Virus genome (UHGV): UHGV-0093339
DNA: 31,149 nt
Direction: 5' to 3' (one strand)
From: a virus
The position numbers and the translations under genes were made by a program. Of this stretch, positions 1,357 through 30,904 are shown in pieces (the stretch's first letter is position 1; every line of letters begins with the position of its first letter). A model generated the notes under the pieces. It had not been told where the DNA came from. It searched no databases and saw only the letters and a program-made list of their open reading frames with translations.

Positions 1357-1371
1357 TTACCTTAAAGGTAA
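1357..1371. promoter_or_regulatory. operator-like dyad TTACCTTAAAGGTAA abutting the RBS of the 1384 ORF
   Basis: Identical 15-mer to the site at 230-244; immediately followed by AGGAGG and the ATG at 1384. Confidence 0.45.
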
Positions 1372-1383
1372 AGGAGGCGCGAT

Positions 1384-1551
1384 ATGACAGCGTTGAAAAA
1401 TCGTACTCAGCACAATGAACAAGCCAAGCAATGCTGGGATGTCATTGGAAAAGTTATGCTTGGTCGCGCAAGCAAAGAGCGCGACAAGGATATGGTTTAC
1501 CAGACAGGAACATCTTTTAGCGACTTCAAGGCGGCATTTCGCTCCAAATAG
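1384..1551 (+). CDS. hypothetical small protein (55 aa)
   Basis: Read by hand: AAAGGAGG RBS 6 nt upstream of ATG 1384, stop TAG 1549-1551; translation MTALKNRTQHNEQAKQCWDVIGKVMLGRASKERDKDMVYQTGTSFSDFKAAFRSK; not in ORF track (short). Confidence 0.5.
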   Translation: MTALKNRTQHNEQAKQCWDVIGKVMLGRASKERDKDMVYQTGTSFSDFKAAFRSK

Positions 1552-1571
1552 AAGCACATCAGGAGTTTTCC

Positions 1572-2015
1572 TTGAAGTTTAACATTAGAATATCTAATAG
1601 TTTTCTACATGGGGAAAGCAACACCCCTTTCGCTGTAGACGGACCTTTCCTTACTGATGATGAAATAAAAATCATACAAAGGTTTTTAGAGGATGTTGCC
1701 AATGGAAGGGCGCTTGTTGGAAAAAACAAGCCCTCGTGGGTTGATGATAACCATGATAAAATTCCCGGCTCAGACAATTATGAGCAAGAGAATTATTGGC
1801 ATTATCATTGTGGGCCAACATGGTATCCAAACACATTTAAGAATTATACCATTAACTTAAATTTCAACCCTGGCGGAATGCATTCTAATGAATGCATTCA
1901 TTATGCAAAAAATGATAATGAAATTGTCATTGTTGGATTTTCAAGAGAACACATACCTTTCCTTTCATCAGATGGAAACAACAATCCGCTTTTTAATGAT
2001 GAAGAAGAAGAATAA
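1572..2015 (+). CDS. hypothetical protein (147 aa), AT-rich moron gene
   Basis: ORF-track 1572..2015 with TTG start 7 nt after AGGAG; markedly AT-rich codon usage compared with neighbours (by eye); acidic EEEE tail; terminator directly downstream; no family recognised. Confidence 0.6.
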   Translation: MKFNIRISNSFLHGESNTPFAVDGPFLTDDEIKIIQRFLEDVANGRALVGKNKPSWVDDNHDKIPGSDNYEQENYWHYHCGPTWYPNTFKNYTINLNFNPGGMHSNECIHYAKNDNEIVIVGFSREHIPFLSSDGNNNPLFNDEEEE

Positions 2016-2037
2016 GCCCGCGCTGCGGGATTTTTTG
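2016..2037 (+). terminator. intrinsic terminator after the AT-rich gene
   Basis: cccgc-gct-gcggg hairpin followed by TTTTTT, directly after the stop at 2013-2015. Confidence 0.6.
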
Positions 2038-2108
2038 TGGACGAAACAAAAGTCAGTGCTACACTCATTGACGCCACATTGAGGTGGCTTATAGATGGAA
2101 ATTTCACA

Positions 2109-2270
2109 ATGAAAAAAGCATTTGCTGCACTGTTCGTTTTGTTGTCTCTGGTAGCTTCAACTCAGGCCTTTGCCGGTCGTTGTCAGCACGACAGCGATAC
2201 TGCCGCTGACGGCTCCCGCTGCGGTGGGCGTTCTGCGGATTCCCGCCCGGGAGGCGGTGGCATTCGTTAA
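2109..2270 (+). CDS. hypothetical small secreted protein (53 aa) with signal peptide
   Basis: Internal ATG of ORF-track 2037..2270 (the listed start is a GTG inside the terminator); MKKAFAALFVLLSLVASTQAFA looks like a Sec signal peptide with an AFA cleavage site; Gly/Arg/Asp-rich mature part. Confidence 0.45.
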   Translation: MKKAFAALFVLLSLVASTQAFAGRCQHDSDTAADGSRCGGRSADSRPGGGGIR

Positions 2271-2794: not shown

Positions 2795-5269
2795 TTATTG
2801 CGGAGTGACATCCTGTGGTCGCCACCAGTATGTCTGGTTAAACTCTTTCTTCGAACGTTGCTCCATTTTACGCAAATAACCTGGTGAAAAATACTCCTGC
2901 ATCTGGTTAAAGATCATGTGATCGAGAGCCGCCTTTAAGTACCAGAGATTCGCACCTGGCATCAGACCTTTCCCCAGCTTAACCAGATCACCACCAGTCT
3001 GCTCATTCTTCCCTTCCACAGCATTTAACGGTATGCCCTGAGCAATCTTCACTACGTCATCAACCAGACCAGCTACCGGGCCAAGCATCGACGCCAGCGC
3101 GCCGCTTCCGTACCTAGTGTGATCTGACAATAAAAAGTCACCGTAAAGGCCAAGACCACCACCTTTCAGTAGAGCACCAAGCCAAAATTTAGCAGCATCT
3201 TCTCCTGTCATCTCGCGAGGATTACGACCAGACGCAAGGTCGTTAAGTTGCTGCGACAAAGCGCCAAGAATGGTCGTACTGGCAATAAACGTCGCAATAT
3301 ATGCCGCACGCCCACCAGCAGACGGCATACCCATAGCGCGTGACCAGTGACGCATAACCACCGAGATAGGGAACGATTTAAACAGGAAAACACTTCTCGT
3401 TAATTCACCTTTCCATGTTCCACGCTGAATACCAGAACCGGTTATCAGTTGCTCACGTGCTCCCGGTGTAATAACAGCCATATCAACTTCTTCAGTTACG
3501 GCACCGAGCAGTTTACGCATTGCCTCAAATTTCACGCGTTCAGGCTCACCAAGATGTTTAACTGCTGAATCAGGGATACGCATAATGCTTTCCGGTGTCA
3601 GCATCGTATTATTGCCGTTCCCCCAGTCCTCCTGTTGCGCCAGCTTCCATACGCTCCAGTCTGTGTCAGTAATCCCTTTGCTTTTCAGGATACGAAAATC
3701 AGAATCATCGAGGCTACGAAGGTCTGGTGTCCGTGACACTACTTCTCCCAGGCTTCCCATCATGGTTACGCCATAGGCGCGCTTGTGCGCATCTGACCAT
3801 GCTGTAAGCCCACTGGCACGCATCACCGCCGTTGCAGCCCAACGAGACACAGACGGCCCCATATTATCCATCGCCCAGCGGTTAACGCTGCCAAGTAGAG
3901 ATTCCATCGCCAGACCAGCGCGGCGCGCCCGCGCAAGTTCTGTACGGTTCGTTGGGTCCATAGCTTCAAGCTGGTTGCGGAATAACTGGTTCATTGGAAG
4001 GTTGGTAACCTTCGCAGACAGATACATGGTTCCAAGATCAGAGAACGATGACAGCAACGCGGATCCGAGTCTGCTGGCAACCAGCCAGTTGCGGATATTG
4101 TCAGACCATCGCGCGATGTGCGGATTCGCTACAGGCTGTGTCTTTCCGGAAATAAAGTTGTACAGATTCTCTGTGTTGTTCGCCAGCCGCTCGACTTTAC
4201 CGGTTTTACTCGGGTTAGCTGTTGCCGTTTCTGCCTTCACCTGATCAAGAAGAGAGCGGAAAACATGATCGGGGTTTGGGCCATATGTTTCCACCAATGC
4301 AATATCTTTACTGATACCTTCAAGGTGACCGACCATGATTTCCCATAGAGAGCGATCGCCATAAAGTTGCTGATATTGCAGATAGGAATCTGCATCTTTG
4401 AAATGTATCTGTCGTGATGCATTACCACGGTTAGCACGTGCGCCGGAAATTCGCATTCCGGTATCAGTAAGCTTATTCAGCCCACCAGTAGCGATCGTGT
4501 TATAAGCCTCTCCAAGAAATGCAGACAACTCGGCATCGTTCATCAGTTGTCCATCGGCTAGGGTATAATATTTGCGATCCAGCTTACCTATAACATCGCT
4601 AACCCATTTATCTTTTGATACCGCCCCAACCTTTTCCATAGAATGATGTTGAGGGATCCCCCAGTTTTCGAGATAGCCAGTGTCCCCACCAGCATCATTA
4701 AACCGGCGGCGCAGCAGCTCTGTAACTTCTCTCCACGCCTTAGCACCTTTTCTTGCTTTAGCATTGCCAGTATTTTGCCCCCGCATTTCATATACCAGGT
4801 CACGTACGCCCGCTTCATCTTCAAACAGACCAAAAAAGCGAGGATCAACTGCTTCGAATGCCTCCTGCAATTGACTCAATGCATAATCACGGGTGGCTTT
4901 TGTTCTGGATTCAACAGAGAGGAAATTCGATTTACCGTCTGCATTAAAAGCAATAGTACGGTTAAGAGCGCCAAGTTTCCCATCAGCCCCTTGATAGCTA
5001 TTGATAAATTTATCCAATCTCTGACGTGCGGCTATAGTGAGGGCCACACGACGTTTCTTTAATGCCGCTTCTCGCTGTAATTCTTCAGATGCCAATTGTG
5101 CTGCACGATACAACCGTTCTGATTCGGAAAGTTGTCGCCACGACATCGGGTCATCACGAGCAATGGAGCGCATATTTCGATAAATGCGGTCTTCAATGTT
5201 CTGTATTTCTCGCGCCGTTAACGTGCGCTGCGCCGCCTGCTGGACCGCTTGTATACATTCCTGTCTCAT
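2795..5269 (-). CDS. virion internal/ejection-type protein (824 aa), putative
   Basis: Long ORF with GAGAGG RBS; position after the other large virion genes in a T7-like order; assignment by position and size only. Confidence 0.5.
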   Translation of the reverse strand: MRQECIQAVQQAAQRTLTAREIQNIEDRIYRNMRSIARDDPMSWRQLSESERLYRAAQLASEELQREAALKKRRVALTIAARQRLDKFINSYQGADGKLGALNRTIAFNADGKSNFLSVESRTKATRDYALSQLQEAFEAVDPRFFGLFEDEAGVRDLVYEMRGQNTGNAKARKGAKAWREVTELLRRRFNDAGGDTGYLENWGIPQHHSMEKVGAVSKDKWVSDVIGKLDRKYYTLADGQLMNDAELSAFLGEAYNTIATGGLNKLTDTGMRISGARANRGNASRQIHFKDADSYLQYQQLYGDRSLWEIMVGHLEGISKDIALVETYGPNPDHVFRSLLDQVKAETATANPSKTGKVERLANNTENLYNFISGKTQPVANPHIARWSDNIRNWLVASRLGSALLSSFSDLGTMYLSAKVTNLPMNQLFRNQLEAMDPTNRTELARARRAGLAMESLLGSVNRWAMDNMGPSVSRWAATAVMRASGLTAWSDAHKRAYGVTMMGSLGEVVSRTPDLRSLDDSDFRILKSKGITDTDWSVWKLAQQEDWGNGNNTMLTPESIMRIPDSAVKHLGEPERVKFEAMRKLLGAVTEEVDMAVITPGAREQLITGSGIQRGTWKGELTRSVFLFKSFPISVVMRHWSRAMGMPSAGGRAAYIATFIASTTILGALSQQLNDLASGRNPREMTGEDAAKFWLGALLKGGGLGLYGDFLLSDHTRYGSGALASMLGPVAGLVDDVVKIAQGIPLNAVEGKNEQTGGDLVKLGKGLMPGANLWYLKAALDHMIFNQMQEYFSPGYLRKMEQRSKKEFNQTYWWRPQDVTPQ

Positions 5270-16671: not shown

Positions 16672-16761
16672 ATCAATGACTCCGTACGCAATTAAATTAT
16701 TACCAATTTAACCACATATGATTTATTTATCGTAGATAGTTGACATTTAACGCACAAATTA

Positions 16762-16776
16762 TTACCTTTCAGGTAA
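16762..16776. promoter_or_regulatory. operator-like dyad TTACCTTTCAGGTAA upstream of the head operon
   Basis: Perfect TTACC-N5-GGTAA; a TTGACA hexamer on the plus strand lies at 16740-16745. Confidence 0.4.
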
Positions 16777-17098: not shown

Positions 17099-17175
17099 GT
17101 GGCATTAGCTCAGTTGGACAGAGCAACCGCCTTCTAAGCGGTTGGTCGCAGGTTCGAATCCTGCATGCCACGCCA
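17099..17175 (+). tRNA. tRNA-Arg (anticodon TCT)
   Basis: Cloverleaf folded by hand: 7-bp acceptor stem gtggcat/atgccac, D-arm gctc-agttggaca-gagc, anticodon stem accgc/gcggt with loop cttctaa (anticodon TCT at 17133-17135), T-arm gcagg-ttcgaat-cctgc, discriminator G and encoded CCA. Confidence 0.85.
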
Positions 17176-24572: not shown

Positions 24573-24635
24573 TCACCCATAAGGTAACAAAAATCAAGGA
24601 TAGTTACCCATGGGGTGCATTTACCTGTTGGGTAA
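24573..24635. promoter_or_regulatory. OR-like operator cluster, three dyads between the divergent Cro-like and CI-like genes
   Basis: Sites at 24573-24587 (tCACC-cataa-GGTAA), 24604-24618 (TTACC-catgg-GGTgc) and 24621-24635 (TTACC-tgttg-GGTAA); a leftward TTGATT -35 candidate at 24597-24592. Confidence 0.6.
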
Positions 24636-24690: not shown

Positions 24691-25275
24691 ATGAAAAGTA
24701 TCCAGGACGTCCGCAGGCAAAATCTCAACGACTTGATCGACCGTGAATTCAATGGTGTTCAGACGCGGATGGCAGAAAAACTTGGAACTCAGGCAAATCT
24801 GGTAAACCGCTGGGCTCTTGGCAAGAAGGTTATCGGCGACCAGGTTGCGCGAAAAATTGAAGCTGCCGCCAATAAACCCCGTAACTGGCTTGATATCGAT
24901 CGCTCGCTTTCTCAGGAAGGTTTTCAGCCTGTCGGACCAAGCGACATTGGTCAACTGGCGGCTCACAACCTGGAACGCTGGATGAGCGAAAGCCGCGACC
25001 TTTCAACACAGGGAAAACTTCACCGCGCATCCGGCGTCGCCCAGGTGACAATCAGCCGCCTGTTAAACAATGAGGTCAGCGTTTCCATTTCCACCCTGGA
25101 GAATGTTGCATCCGCATTCGGGCGTCACGGCTATGAATTACTGATTCACCCGCACGACCCTGCGACCATCAACTATGACCGCTCGCGCTACGCATTGTTA
25201 CCCGAAACCGAGAAAGCAAAGATCGAAAGTTACATTGAATTTGTCATCAACCAGAACGAAAAAAACAAACAATAA
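24691..25275 (+). CDS. CI-like prophage repressor with two HTH domains and no peptidase domain
   Basis: ORF-track; two XRE-type HTH-like segments (QTRMAEKLGTQANLVNRWALGKK and LHRASGVAQVTISRLLNNEVSVS); no Ser/Lys autocleavage module seen; flanked by operator clusters and followed by a terminator. Confidence 0.6.
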   Translation: MKSIQDVRRQNLNDLIDREFNGVQTRMAEKLGTQANLVNRWALGKKVIGDQVARKIEAAANKPRNWLDIDRSLSQEGFQPVGPSDIGQLAAHNLERWMSESRDLSTQGKLHRASGVAQVTISRLLNNEVSVSISTLENVASAFGRHGYELLIHPHDPATINYDRSRYALLPETEKAKIESYIEFVINQNEKNKQ

Positions 25276-25332: not shown

Positions 25333-25409
25333 TTACCTGTCGGGTAATTTTTTTAACTCATATCTATTGACATCAAACCAAATACGAATAATCATTACCT
25401 CAACGGTAA
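25333..25409 (+). promoter_or_regulatory. PL-like early promoter with two flanking dyad operators
   Basis: Perfect dyads at 25333-25347 (TTACC-tgtcg-GGTAA) and 25395-25409 (TTACC-tcaac-GGTAA) bracket TTGACA at 25367-25372 and an A/T-rich -10 region around 25387-25395. Confidence 0.6.
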
Positions 25410-29647: not shown

Positions 29648-30904
29648 TTATTTATTACTGTCTTCCATCCACTTCTCAAACTTCGACGGGGAGAACGGAA
29701 TCAGATCCGTATGCTCCCCGTCAATCCAGGAATCAATCATATCTGCCCACTGCTGCAACATGTAGGCGCGCTGTCTGGCGTATTCCGCTTTGTTATATAC
29801 GGCGCGCACACCTTTCTGCTCATGTGCCAGAGCCTTTTCAATCCAGTCTGAAGGATAACCAGCCTCATGCAATAACGTACTGGCTGTACGGCGCATATCG
29901 TGTACGGTGAAGTCCTGAATATGCTCACCATTTTCATTTATTATTTTCACCGTTCTGTCGATCAGAGAGTTCAGCGCGGCATTAGATAATGGCTTCCGGA
30001 AGTTGTAACGACCAGGAACCAGATATTCACTTCCACCAGCGCACATCTGCAGCCCGACCAATATATCCTGTGCCTGTTTAGGCAGGTAAATAACGTGCGC
30101 CCGGCTTCCCTTCATGCGGTCTGAAGGAATTGTCCATGTCCATTTTTTAAAATCTATTTCATCCCACGTTGCATTGGTGAACTCGCCTTTACGAACCATA
30201 GTGATAAGCACCAGCTTTAAAGCCATTTTCATAGTGCCCATAGCACCAATGGCATCCAGCGTGCGGAAGAACAGGCCAATTTCTTCTGGTGTCAGTGTTC
30301 GCTCTCTTGGTTTAAATATGGCGATAGACGAAGGTTTAATGTCAGCCGCAGGATTAAACAAACCATGACCACGGTCATTGGCGTGACGGTATACGCTGCT
30401 GATGATCTCCCTTGCCTGTACTGCTGTTGCCCGACCACCGCGTTCGACAATCCGGTCACACAAATCACGAACCATCGATGTGGTAATTTCAGTCATCATT
30501 TTGTTGCCAAGAACTGGAAGTATGTCACGGTCGATCACCGCCTGCTTCATTGCGCGGGTACTGTCAGCCAGGATGACGTGTTTCATATAACTGTCGGTAT
30601 GTACCGTAAACGTCTCGGCACCACGAATCTTTTTGATACCGTCACGTTTAGCCGCAGCCGGTGACTGGCCTGCTTTAAGCAGCTTCTTTGCAGCAATCAG
30701 TTCTTCTCGCGCTTCTGCCAGGCTGATACCGTCACGCCCATACTGCCCGATTACCAGTGTTTCGCGGCGACCGTTGATACGGTAGTCATAGCGAAACGAG
30801 ACCGTACCTGACGTAAGCACAGCTACATACAGCCCGTCACGATCGGAAACTTTGTACAGTTTGTCCTGTGGCTTGAGGTTCTTTAATTTTGTATCGGTAA
30901 GCAC
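29648..30904 (-). CDS. int: site-specific tyrosine integrase (P4-like)
   Basis: 418-aa ORF with GTG start preceded by GGGTGA; C-terminal catalytic region with HDMRRT...LAHEQKGVRAVY (His/Arg/Tyr); convergent with the early operon at the right end of the element. Confidence 0.8.
   Translation of the reverse strand: MLTDTKLKNLKPQDKLYKVSDRDGLYVAVLTSGTVSFRYDYRINGRRETLVIGQYGRDGISLAEAREELIAAKKLLKAGQSPAAAKRDGIKKIRGAETFTVHTDSYMKHVILADSTRAMKQAVIDRDILPVLGNKMMTEITTSMVRDLCDRIVERGGRATAVQAREIISSVYRHANDRGHGLFNPAADIKPSSIAIFKPRERTLTPEEIGLFFRTLDAIGAMGTMKMALKLVLITMVRKGEFTNATWDEIDFKKWTWTIPSDRMKGSRAHVIYLPKQAQDILVGLQMCAGGSEYLVPGRYNFRKPLSNAALNSLIDRTVKIINENGEHIQDFTVHDMRRTASTLLHEAGYPSDWIEKALAHEQKGVRAVYNKAEYARQRAYMLQQWADMIDSWIDGEHTDLIPFSPSKFEKWMEDSNK

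Follow-up and report, generated by a model that had tools for sequence, protein, structure and literature searches.

What is encoded in the AT-rich interval that separates the antirepressor gene from the end of the virion operon in the viral genome UHGV-0093339? The window, by which we mean the whole stretch of 31,149 nucleotides (nt) analysed, is a Uetakevirus (epsilon15/phiV10-like) prophage of Escherichia coli; its positions 1300-2300 show 97-99% identity to the Escherichia phages HEMP4 and phiv142-3 of that genus and match the E. coli 118UI chromosome at 100%. Two genes follow each other on the plus strand of this interval: one for a basic protein of 55 amino acids (aa), the putative antitoxin or partner (1384-1551, ATG start), and one for a 147-aa protein of RelE/ParE fold, the putative toxin (1572-2015, TTG start). 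We consider it somewhat probable that positions 1328-2036 hold a two-gene type II toxin-antitoxin-like pair, in which a RelE-fold protein, probably a ribonuclease (RNase), would be neutralised by the C-terminal helix of its partner, translation would favour the partner and the prophage repressor would gate transcription. A new accessory module of toxin-antitoxin type is in any case the most likely answer, rather than anything radically new.

Both open reading frames (ORFs) are real genes, because they have homologues, because the 147-aa coding frame is the sole open frame in all homologues of that gene, and because the 55-aa protein matches phrog_8607 (3.6e-39). The Prokaryotic Genome Annotation Pipeline (PGAP) annotation of E. 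coli 118UI contains them as well, in an identical set of three ORFs of 55, 147 and 53 aa. A first search with the 147-aa protein returned 36 homologue clusters in Enterobacterales and Pasteurellaceae, and a profile search of 1.84 billion cluster representatives gave 119 relatives at E<=1e-3, to which a repeat of the profile search, based on a broad alignment, added few others and no named family. Members of the family reside in Enterobacterales, Pasteurellaceae, Vibrio and Neisseriaceae prophages. The preliminary description, made from the letters of the sequence, had recognised no family for the 55-aa and 147-aa products, and database searches leave it there: the 147-aa protein has no Pfam, NCBIfam or PADLOC match, a sequence search of the PDB was uninformative for it and for the 55-aa protein, the PHROGs families matched by the two (phrog_5954 for the 147-aa and phrog_8607 for the 55-aa protein) are of unknown function, and the 55-aa protein shows no Pfam or NCBIfam domain even at E<=10.

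The 147-aa product is a compact alpha/beta protein of microbial-RNase type, in which N-terminal helices pack on an antiparallel sheet of 3-5 strands as in the RelE/ParE superfamily, and we regard the assignment to this toxin fold as sound. Like the RelE/ParE type II toxins (RelE, YafQ, YoeB and HigB; PDB 1wmi, 4q2u, 2a6q and 7nbu), it is the product of a small gene that follows a small partner in one operon, and it carries a conserved histidine (H127) directly past the last beta-strand, a place which we take to be that of YoeB H83, YafQ H87 and HigB H92. It differs from them in its length of 147 aa, with an N-terminal extension of ~45 residues made of a strand plus helices, in its acidic instead of basic character and in having no detectable sequence similarity to them. 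H77, H79 and H127 are invariant in 73 relatives, down to ~22% identity; G50, N52, K53, Y78 and Y111 are conserved in at least 90% of these, and the family motifs read GKNKPSW, WHYHCG, ECIHY and IVIVGFSxxH. The invariant set of histidine, lysine and tyrosine residues suggests an active enzyme, and the conservation of H77, H79, H127, K53 and Y111 in particular hints at catalysis. Most likely the product would act as an endoribonuclease of the mRNA-interferase type, using His77-x-His79, His127, Tyr111 and Lys53.

Is the 55-aa protein a genuine partner? Of 19 genome loci 18 were matched with confidence, and in all of these the relative of the 147-aa gene is either preceded by a co-directional ORF whose end lies 0-30 nt upstream or overlapped by one; one such overlap is the 4-nt ATGA. 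The same arrangement recurs in three further metagenome or genome contexts (Vibrio, Klebsiella and a metagenome). The genes at these loci are, as here, small, adjacent and co-directional, in one operon with the partner first. In Erwinia the equivalent position is taken by an evident homologue of the 55-aa protein. Elsewhere the partners vary in length from 55 to 211 aa and in their N-termini; those of Pasteurellaceae, Neisseriaceae and Klebsiella reach 102-211 aa, and the part that can be aligned to the 55-aa protein is their last ~40 residues (for the Haemophilus partner, 38% identity across 42 aa, ending at the C-terminus). The tail motif [ST]x[DE][DE][FIL][KR] is common to the E. coli, Erwinia, Pasteurellaceae, Neisseriaceae and Klebsiella partners; Aeromonas and Enterobacter adelaidei have unrelated small partners. 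The pairing is therefore kept across lineages with partners that are modular and swapped, as in type II systems. Homologous pairs occupy several mobile contexts, namely the Uetakevirus slot described below, the lambdoid nin region, the P2-like late region and the neighbourhood of integrases; the pairs of Pasteurellaceae and Neisseriaceae directly precede the baseplate V gene of P2-like prophages. Type II toxin-antitoxin modules show this pattern, in which the toxin-side gene is conserved and its modular partners retain an interaction-type motif at the C-terminus. The 55-aa protein would accordingly be the cognate partner, neutralising the 147-aa protein most likely through its conserved C-terminal helix (SFSDFKAAF).

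The layout of the pair is that of a single transcription unit, with a 20-nt gap between the genes, one promoter-like site and one terminator. The promoter-like element, read from the sequence on the plus strand (1328-1357), consists of a -35 TTGGCG (1328-1333), an 18-nt spacer and a -10 TAATAT (1352-1357), and falls under the threshold of a consensus promoter scan. The last T of its -10 is the first base of an operator-type dyad, TTACCTTAAAGGTAA (TTACC-N5-GGTAA, 1357-1371), which overlaps by 2 nt the Shine-Dalgarno sequence of the 55-aa gene, AAAGGAGG (1370-1377, 6 nt ahead of the ATG at 1384), so that the dyad does abut the ribosome-binding site as first described. The 147-aa gene has the Shine-Dalgarno sequence AGGAG (1561-1565), 6 nt ahead of its TTG at 1572. 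Translation would thus be tilted to the partner, with AAAGGAGG and ATG set against AGGAG and TTG for the putative toxin. The unit is closed on the plus strand by an intrinsic terminator of canonical form, CCCGC-GCT-GCGGG, A, T6 (2017-2036; stem 2017-2029, T6 2031-2036), which begins 2 nt past the stop codon of the 147-aa gene. The preliminary description was right to see a terminator here and overstated it as strong, since the stem is short (5 G-C pairs, -8.3 kcal/mol) and its energy is inseparable from that of shuffled sequence; otherwise the elements it listed (ORFs, ribosome-binding site, dyad, terminator and signal-like peptide) all lie where it had placed them. A match to the Trp leader at 1928-2038 (E 0.31, below the gathering score) was dismissed as chance. 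The AT-richness of the 147-aa gene, judged by eye at first, holds on calculation: positions 1572-2015 have 35.4% G+C against 49.7% for the window and are the lowest among its 444-nt windows (standard deviation 3.3%), and G+C at third codon positions is 30%, with 55-58% in the flanking genes.

The dyad changes the view of how the pair is controlled. Allowing at most one mismatch, TTACC-N5-GGTAA occurs at 11 sites of 15 nt each in the window (starting at 230, 323, 1357, 16762, 19945, 19963, 24573, 24621, 25333, 25395 and 30947), against 0.41 expected. A pair resembling OR (24573 and 24621, with a weaker third site at ~24604-24618) lies between a divergent cro-like gene and the gene of a 194-aa helix-turn-helix (HTH) repressor (24691-25275, plus strand; Pfam HTH_3, 1.2e-9), and a pair resembling OL (25333 and 25395) lies directly past the repressor gene and before the early operon; judged by its sequence, the layout around the repressor gene is that of lambda-like OR/OL. 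Further sites stand before the antirepressor operon (323), before one minus-strand gene (230), before the integrase gene (30947) and before a tRNA region (16762). The same geometry is shared by the PL-like promoter (TTGACA-N17-AATCAT, 25367-25395), the promoter of the antirepressor operon (TTGATT-N18-TATCAT, 294-323) and that of the gene pair: in all three the first T of the operator is also the last base of a -10-like hexamer, and a -35-like hexamer lies 17-18 nt upstream. The family as a whole suggests one repressor over the lytic promoters, the antirepressor operon, the gene pair, the integrase and other promoters, and the 194-aa protein presumably binds these sites. The immunity region of the prophage shares 98% identity with its counterparts in phiV10 and vB_EcoP_ZX5, and overexpression of the ZX5 repressor shuts lytic transcription down, lowering lysis-gene transcription by 99.97-99.99% (PMC9782041). 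The dyad is no private operator of the cassette; it belongs to a prophage-wide family centred on the immunity region, and an autoregulatory antitoxin operator was rejected as its identity because the same dyad marks the immunity region and other prophage promoters. Transcription of the pair would start from a weak sigma-70 promoter whose -10 abuts an operator of OR/OL-like type; since the operator is of this type, the prophage repressor would keep expression of the module low, with a rise on derepression. Some transcription may also reach the pair by read-through from the antirepressor gene.

Comparison with sister prophages shows that the pair is one of several alternative occupants of a fixed slot. 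In phiV10 everything between the antirepressor stop codon and the final codons of the 53-aa gene is missing. At its junction (locus 3490-3530) the 3' flank of the antirepressor gene is joined to the last 53-aa codons (gacgggcgg/aggcggcattcgttaa), which suggests, from the sequence at the join, that a deletion took place between GGCGG repeats, which are short. Both flanks, the left with promoter-like element and operator and the right with terminator and 53-aa gene, are retained in TL-2011b, EC.W1-9 and Phi05_2388, and enclose three different two-gene units: a YafO cargo in TL-2011b, with a 59-aa basic protein and a 181-aa protein matching Pfam YafO_toxin (8.1e-6); a DUF2335 cargo of a 113-aa protein and a DUF2335 membrane protein; and the Phi05 cargo of 124 and 63 aa. 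The YafO pair has the same charge polarity as the 55-aa and 147-aa pair. TL-2011b also has, at locus 3790-3850, an additional antirepressor gene in inverted orientation, and the same 3'-flank sequence recurs behind it in reverse. Among 5426 complete E. coli genomes, the pair studied here was found in 77, the YafO cargo in 61, the DUF2335 cargo in 72 and the Phi05 cargo in 93, and DUF4760 and further cargos also occur at the slot. The operator dyad is present before every cargo type and the slot terminator is kept downstream of every one; before the other cargos the promoter-like element is conserved as TTGCAG-N17-TACTAT.

The preliminary description had counted as a third member of the cassette the gene of the 53-aa secreted or membrane-associated peptide (2109-2270, plus strand). 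This membership was rejected, and the supposed cassette resolves into two units, a swappable two-gene cargo and a separate, widespread peptide gene, because the 53-aa gene stands behind other cargos and the pair occurs without it: the right-flank block of terminator and 53-aa gene has a match in 498 of the 5426 genomes and lies behind at least five different cargos (at least four besides the pair), and strain Br_54_kylling has the intact pair with no 53-aa gene. The gene may have its own promoter, to judge from the promoter-like TTGACG-N16-TATAGA read at 2068-2095 on the plus strand. The peptide has a signal-like N-terminus, MKKAFAALFVLLSLVASTQAFA, and a 32-aa tail rich in Gly, Arg and Asp with two Cys, and its PHROG (phrog_14503) is labelled 'membrane associated protein'.

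The suggestion that the locus is moron-like, an accessory module that is exchanged horizontally and sits where gene content varies, is borne out by its absence from phiV10, by the presence of other cargo in other prophages (61-93 genomes for each alternative), by the contrast of 35.4% with 49.7% G+C and by its own terminator. Prophage moron hotspots include the orf30, Z/fun and tin-old sites of P2 and the lambdoid nin region. The slot resembles these in that its cargo is AT-rich, is exchanged horizontally and has a terminator of its own, in its fixed position between modules and in that homologous pairs sit in the P2-like late region and the lambdoid nin region; it differs in that it provides a conserved promoter and an immunity-type operator and in that all cargos seen are of two genes.

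Does the pair do anything in a lysogen? An answer may already have been published under another name. Li et al. 2020 (PMC7724020) linked 'orf10' of phage phiv142-3 (QGF19616.1) to serum resistance and chicken colonisation. This 52-aa ORF (phiv142-3 3409-3567, window 1702-1860) lies out of frame inside the 147-aa gene, which is unannotated in the phage record MN187550. As a true gene orf10 was rejected, being interrupted by 8-13 stops in every homologue, in which the 147-aa frame is always open. The recombineering arms of that study map to window positions 1642-1701 and 1861-1920, so that the deletion removed 1702-1860, that is, codons 44-97 of the 147-aa gene including the GKNKPSW and WHYHCG motifs. 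Since orf10 is an out-of-frame mis-call, the phenotype belongs to the RelE-fold protein or its operon. The transcript of the region rose 2^4.12-fold (~17-fold) in chicken serum, alongside most prophage genes; the deletion caused no growth defect in lysogeny broth (LB), left survival in 50% chicken serum at ~60%, lowered the kpsF/E/C/M (K1 capsule) transcripts ~2-fold and left blood and heart with a bacterial load of 7-8%; and plasmid complementation restored these phenotypes (PMC7724020). This shows that the 147-aa gene is expressed in lysogens, can be disrupted at no cost, and affects the host when lost. The results fit, and do not prove, a toxin-antitoxin-type RNase whose level tracks prophage derepression: the tolerated loss of codons 44-97 is as expected when a toxin is lost and its antitoxin kept, and the rise in serum, shared by most prophage genes, is in keeping with repressor control.

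The same experiment invites another interpretation, in which the 147-aa protein is a lysogenic-conversion factor that alters host expression, for example by raising K1 capsule transcripts, and so confers serum resistance without being a growth-arresting toxin. The loss of serum survival, kps transcripts and blood and heart loads on deletion, their restoration from a plasmid and a transcript that is detectable in lysogens and rises ~17-fold in serum (PMC7724020) are all what this would predict. We nevertheless think it rather unlikely, since the target of the study was the 52-aa out-of-frame ORF, which makes the product of the complementing plasmid ambiguous, since the effects were modest and indirect, and since it leaves unexplained the RelE-type fold, the invariant histidines and the obligatory partner in phages of Pasteurellaceae, Vibrio and Neisseriaceae. 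Nor does it exclude a toxin-antitoxin-like pair, as the serum phenotype could lie downstream of low-level RNase activity.

The position of the slot raises a further alternative, that it is silent in the lysogen and comes on with the antirepressor at repressor loss or on fresh infection, when the RNase would aid the phage, for example by shutting off host mRNA or countering a competing element, with the 55-aa protein as timer or chaperone. The module lies directly behind the antirepressor gene, separated by a hairpin on the plus strand (GGCACA-GGGA-TGTGCC followed by TTTAAAAT; 1299-1314) that begins directly past the antirepressor stop codon. This hairpin is kept in all sister phages, and with -10.1 kcal/mol, inseparable from shuffled sequence, it is a weak terminator at best, so that transcription may run on from the antirepressor gene into the slot. 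A role as lytic helper would also account for the repressor-type operator that overlaps the promoter, for its retention by all cargo types and for transcription in serum that rises with most other prophage genes. We hold such a role to be distinctly unlikely: phiV10 and other viable relatives have no slot or fill it with unrelated cargo, so the slot is not needed for lytic growth, and a phenotype in LB-grown lysogens implies expression in the repressed state.

To return to the toxin-antitoxin-like pair, a number of observations weigh against it and temper our preference. The Foldseek E-values behind the fold are weak (0.1-1), and the viral structure library BFVD gave no match. None of the 73 relatives matches NCBIfam, PADLOC or any relevant Pfam family, and there is no sequence link to known toxin families. 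The 147-aa protein is acidic (isoelectric point, pI, 4.8) and the 55-aa partner basic (pI 9.8), the reverse of classical RelE and RelB. The partner has no recognisable DNA-binding domain, so that the autoregulating antitoxin of type II systems is not seen here; the ribbon-helix-helix (RHH), Phd or HTH domain of RelB, DinJ, YefM and HigA is missing. The 160-211-aa partners of Pasteurellaceae and Neisseriaceae have a signal-peptide-like N-terminus (e.g. ...VVLSAQA/K), which is odd for a cytosolic antitoxin. Finally, a toxin-antitoxin operon silenced by the prophage repressor is paradoxical under the classical model of a labile antitoxin: a module shut in this way would activate itself in new lysogens, so either repression is leaky or the logic is not that of the textbook. 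The published LB phenotype suggests leaky repression.

Part of this burden is that the nearest candidate family failed. Membership in YafO (PF13957; E. coli yafNO, TL-2011b gp45-gp44) was our first hypothesis, prompted by a resemblance of motifs and by the TL-2011b cargo. The proteins are of similar size (132-181 aa) and share by eye an order of motifs (a helix 'LT..E...F', G(K/R)(N/D), an xHxH strand, xxHY/LVY, and a hydrophobic strand followed by His), the top hhalign alignment runs in the same register, and a YafO-family pair with a basic upstream partner of ~59 aa fills the identical slot in sister prophages. The link is nonetheless statistically unsupported, and this also counts against kinship with an established toxin. 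hhalign against the YafO alignment gave E = 0.13 and a probability of 0.5%; an hhalign alignment at E 0.023 fell on an irrelevant segment; BLASTP gave E 1.3; hmmsearch between the 147-aa family and YafO was not significant in either direction; and Pfam YafO_toxin (PF13957) had no match at E<=10 for the 147-aa protein and none at E<=0.01 for the 73 relatives. For a structural comparison E. coli YafO was modelled with AlphaFold, at a quality too low for use (predicted local distance difference test, pLDDT, 51). Because the hhalign, hmmsearch and Pfam results lend no support, we place the 147-aa protein outside YafO and file it as a new RelE-fold family.

Another parallel may be the three-component PaaR-PaaA-ParE systems of E. 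coli O157 prophages, reportedly described by Hallez and colleagues in 2010, which are said to combine a short antitoxin without a DNA-binding domain and a RelE/ParE-fold toxin, with transcription under a separate phage-type repressor. The pair shares with them a short partner without such a domain, a RelE/ParE-fold protein and a presumed separate phage-type repressor; it differs in that the presumed regulator is the immunity repressor of the prophage itself, encoded 23 kb away, in that the operator is common to lytic promoters, and in its toxin family. Of the roles originally guessed at (superinfection exclusion, toxin-antitoxin or defence), the second gains from the RelE/ParE fold, the coupled partner and the YafO pair at the same slot. 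A known defence system finds no backing in PADLOC-DB v2, where the 55-aa, 147-aa and 53-aa proteins have no match at E<=0.1 and the other slot cargos none at E<=0.01. The pay-off of the pair may lie in prophage retention, abortive defence or stress tolerance.

Some of the points above could be turned into the claim that the RelE-fold protein never was, or no longer is, an enzyme or toxin, and is a binding or adaptor protein, or else a decayed toxin-antitoxin remnant carried as neutral cargo. Its acidity, the lack of a sequence link to characterised toxins and the cost-free disruption in LB would agree with this. We judge it very unlikely in view of three invariant histidines and conserved Lys, Asn and Tyr over 73 divergent relatives, of the strict partner pairing across taxa, and of the state of the E. 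coli copies, since each of the 77 spans 80% or more of the pair and 55 reach an identity of 99% or more.

The genes around the slot agree with its description as lying between the antirepressor gene and the end of the minus-strand virion operon. The former, a Bro-N antirepressor, occupies 604-1290; at the end of the latter a homologue of the phiV10 gp20 virion protein occupies 2795-5269 on the minus strand, and the virion operon has its own terminator at 2276-2293 on that strand (-16.7 kcal/mol, z = -3.75). The window also carries replication genes, further virion genes and an integrase gene (29648-30904). Upstream of the antirepressor gene Rfam places, on the plus strand, an isrK Hfq-binding RNA (374-450, 76.8 bits), a C4 antisense RNA (469-555, 79.5 bits) and, near threshold, a c4 a1/b1 target (361-413); the antirepressor therefore appears to be housed in an antisense-RNA-controlled module like immI of P1/P7, with a repressor-type operator (323-337) in front. 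A tRNA-Arg gene (anticodon TCT, 17099-17175, plus strand) lies inside the minus-strand late region, and upstream of it on the same strand TTGACA occurs in perfect form (16740-16745), as does a dyad of operator type (16762-16776). At the left end, a 59-aa minus-strand ORF (30-209), which runs past the window start, is the 5' part of a 242-aa gene (E. coli 118UI, locus 4182-4910); its start codon is 21 nt from the operator-type dyad at 230-244, and this dyad is 94% complementary over 18 nt to the operator region of the gene pair.

The RelE/ParE fold and the logic of the gene pair are known already. New are the unannotated family, a partner defined by its tail motif, a slot with an immunity-type operator and interchangeable cargos, and the correction of orf10. 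It is tempting to go further and see in the Uetakeviruses an immunity-gated cargo slot, equipped with promoter, own-repressor operator and terminator, whose swapped toxin-like pairs would be released with the antirepressor on the collapse of immunity as a dead-man switch or abortive-infection device, with the 147-aa protein founding a new family of ribosome-targeting RNases. We give this little credence at present. Were it true, the device would be triggered by loss of the repressor, for example through the antirepressor of a superinfecting phage, rather than by antitoxin decay, and the partner of the 147-aa family would be non-canonical and sometimes exported. As it stands, a family called hypothetical by every annotation resource tried acquires a structural and functional handle, in a RelE/ParE-type fold and a cognate partner, and a published virulence result assigned to orf10 can be re-read through the 147-aa gene. 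Standing behind an antirepressor gene, with a repressor-type operator and at least five alternative cargos, the slot therefore offers a compact natural system for the question of why prophages couple accessory toxins to their immunity circuit.

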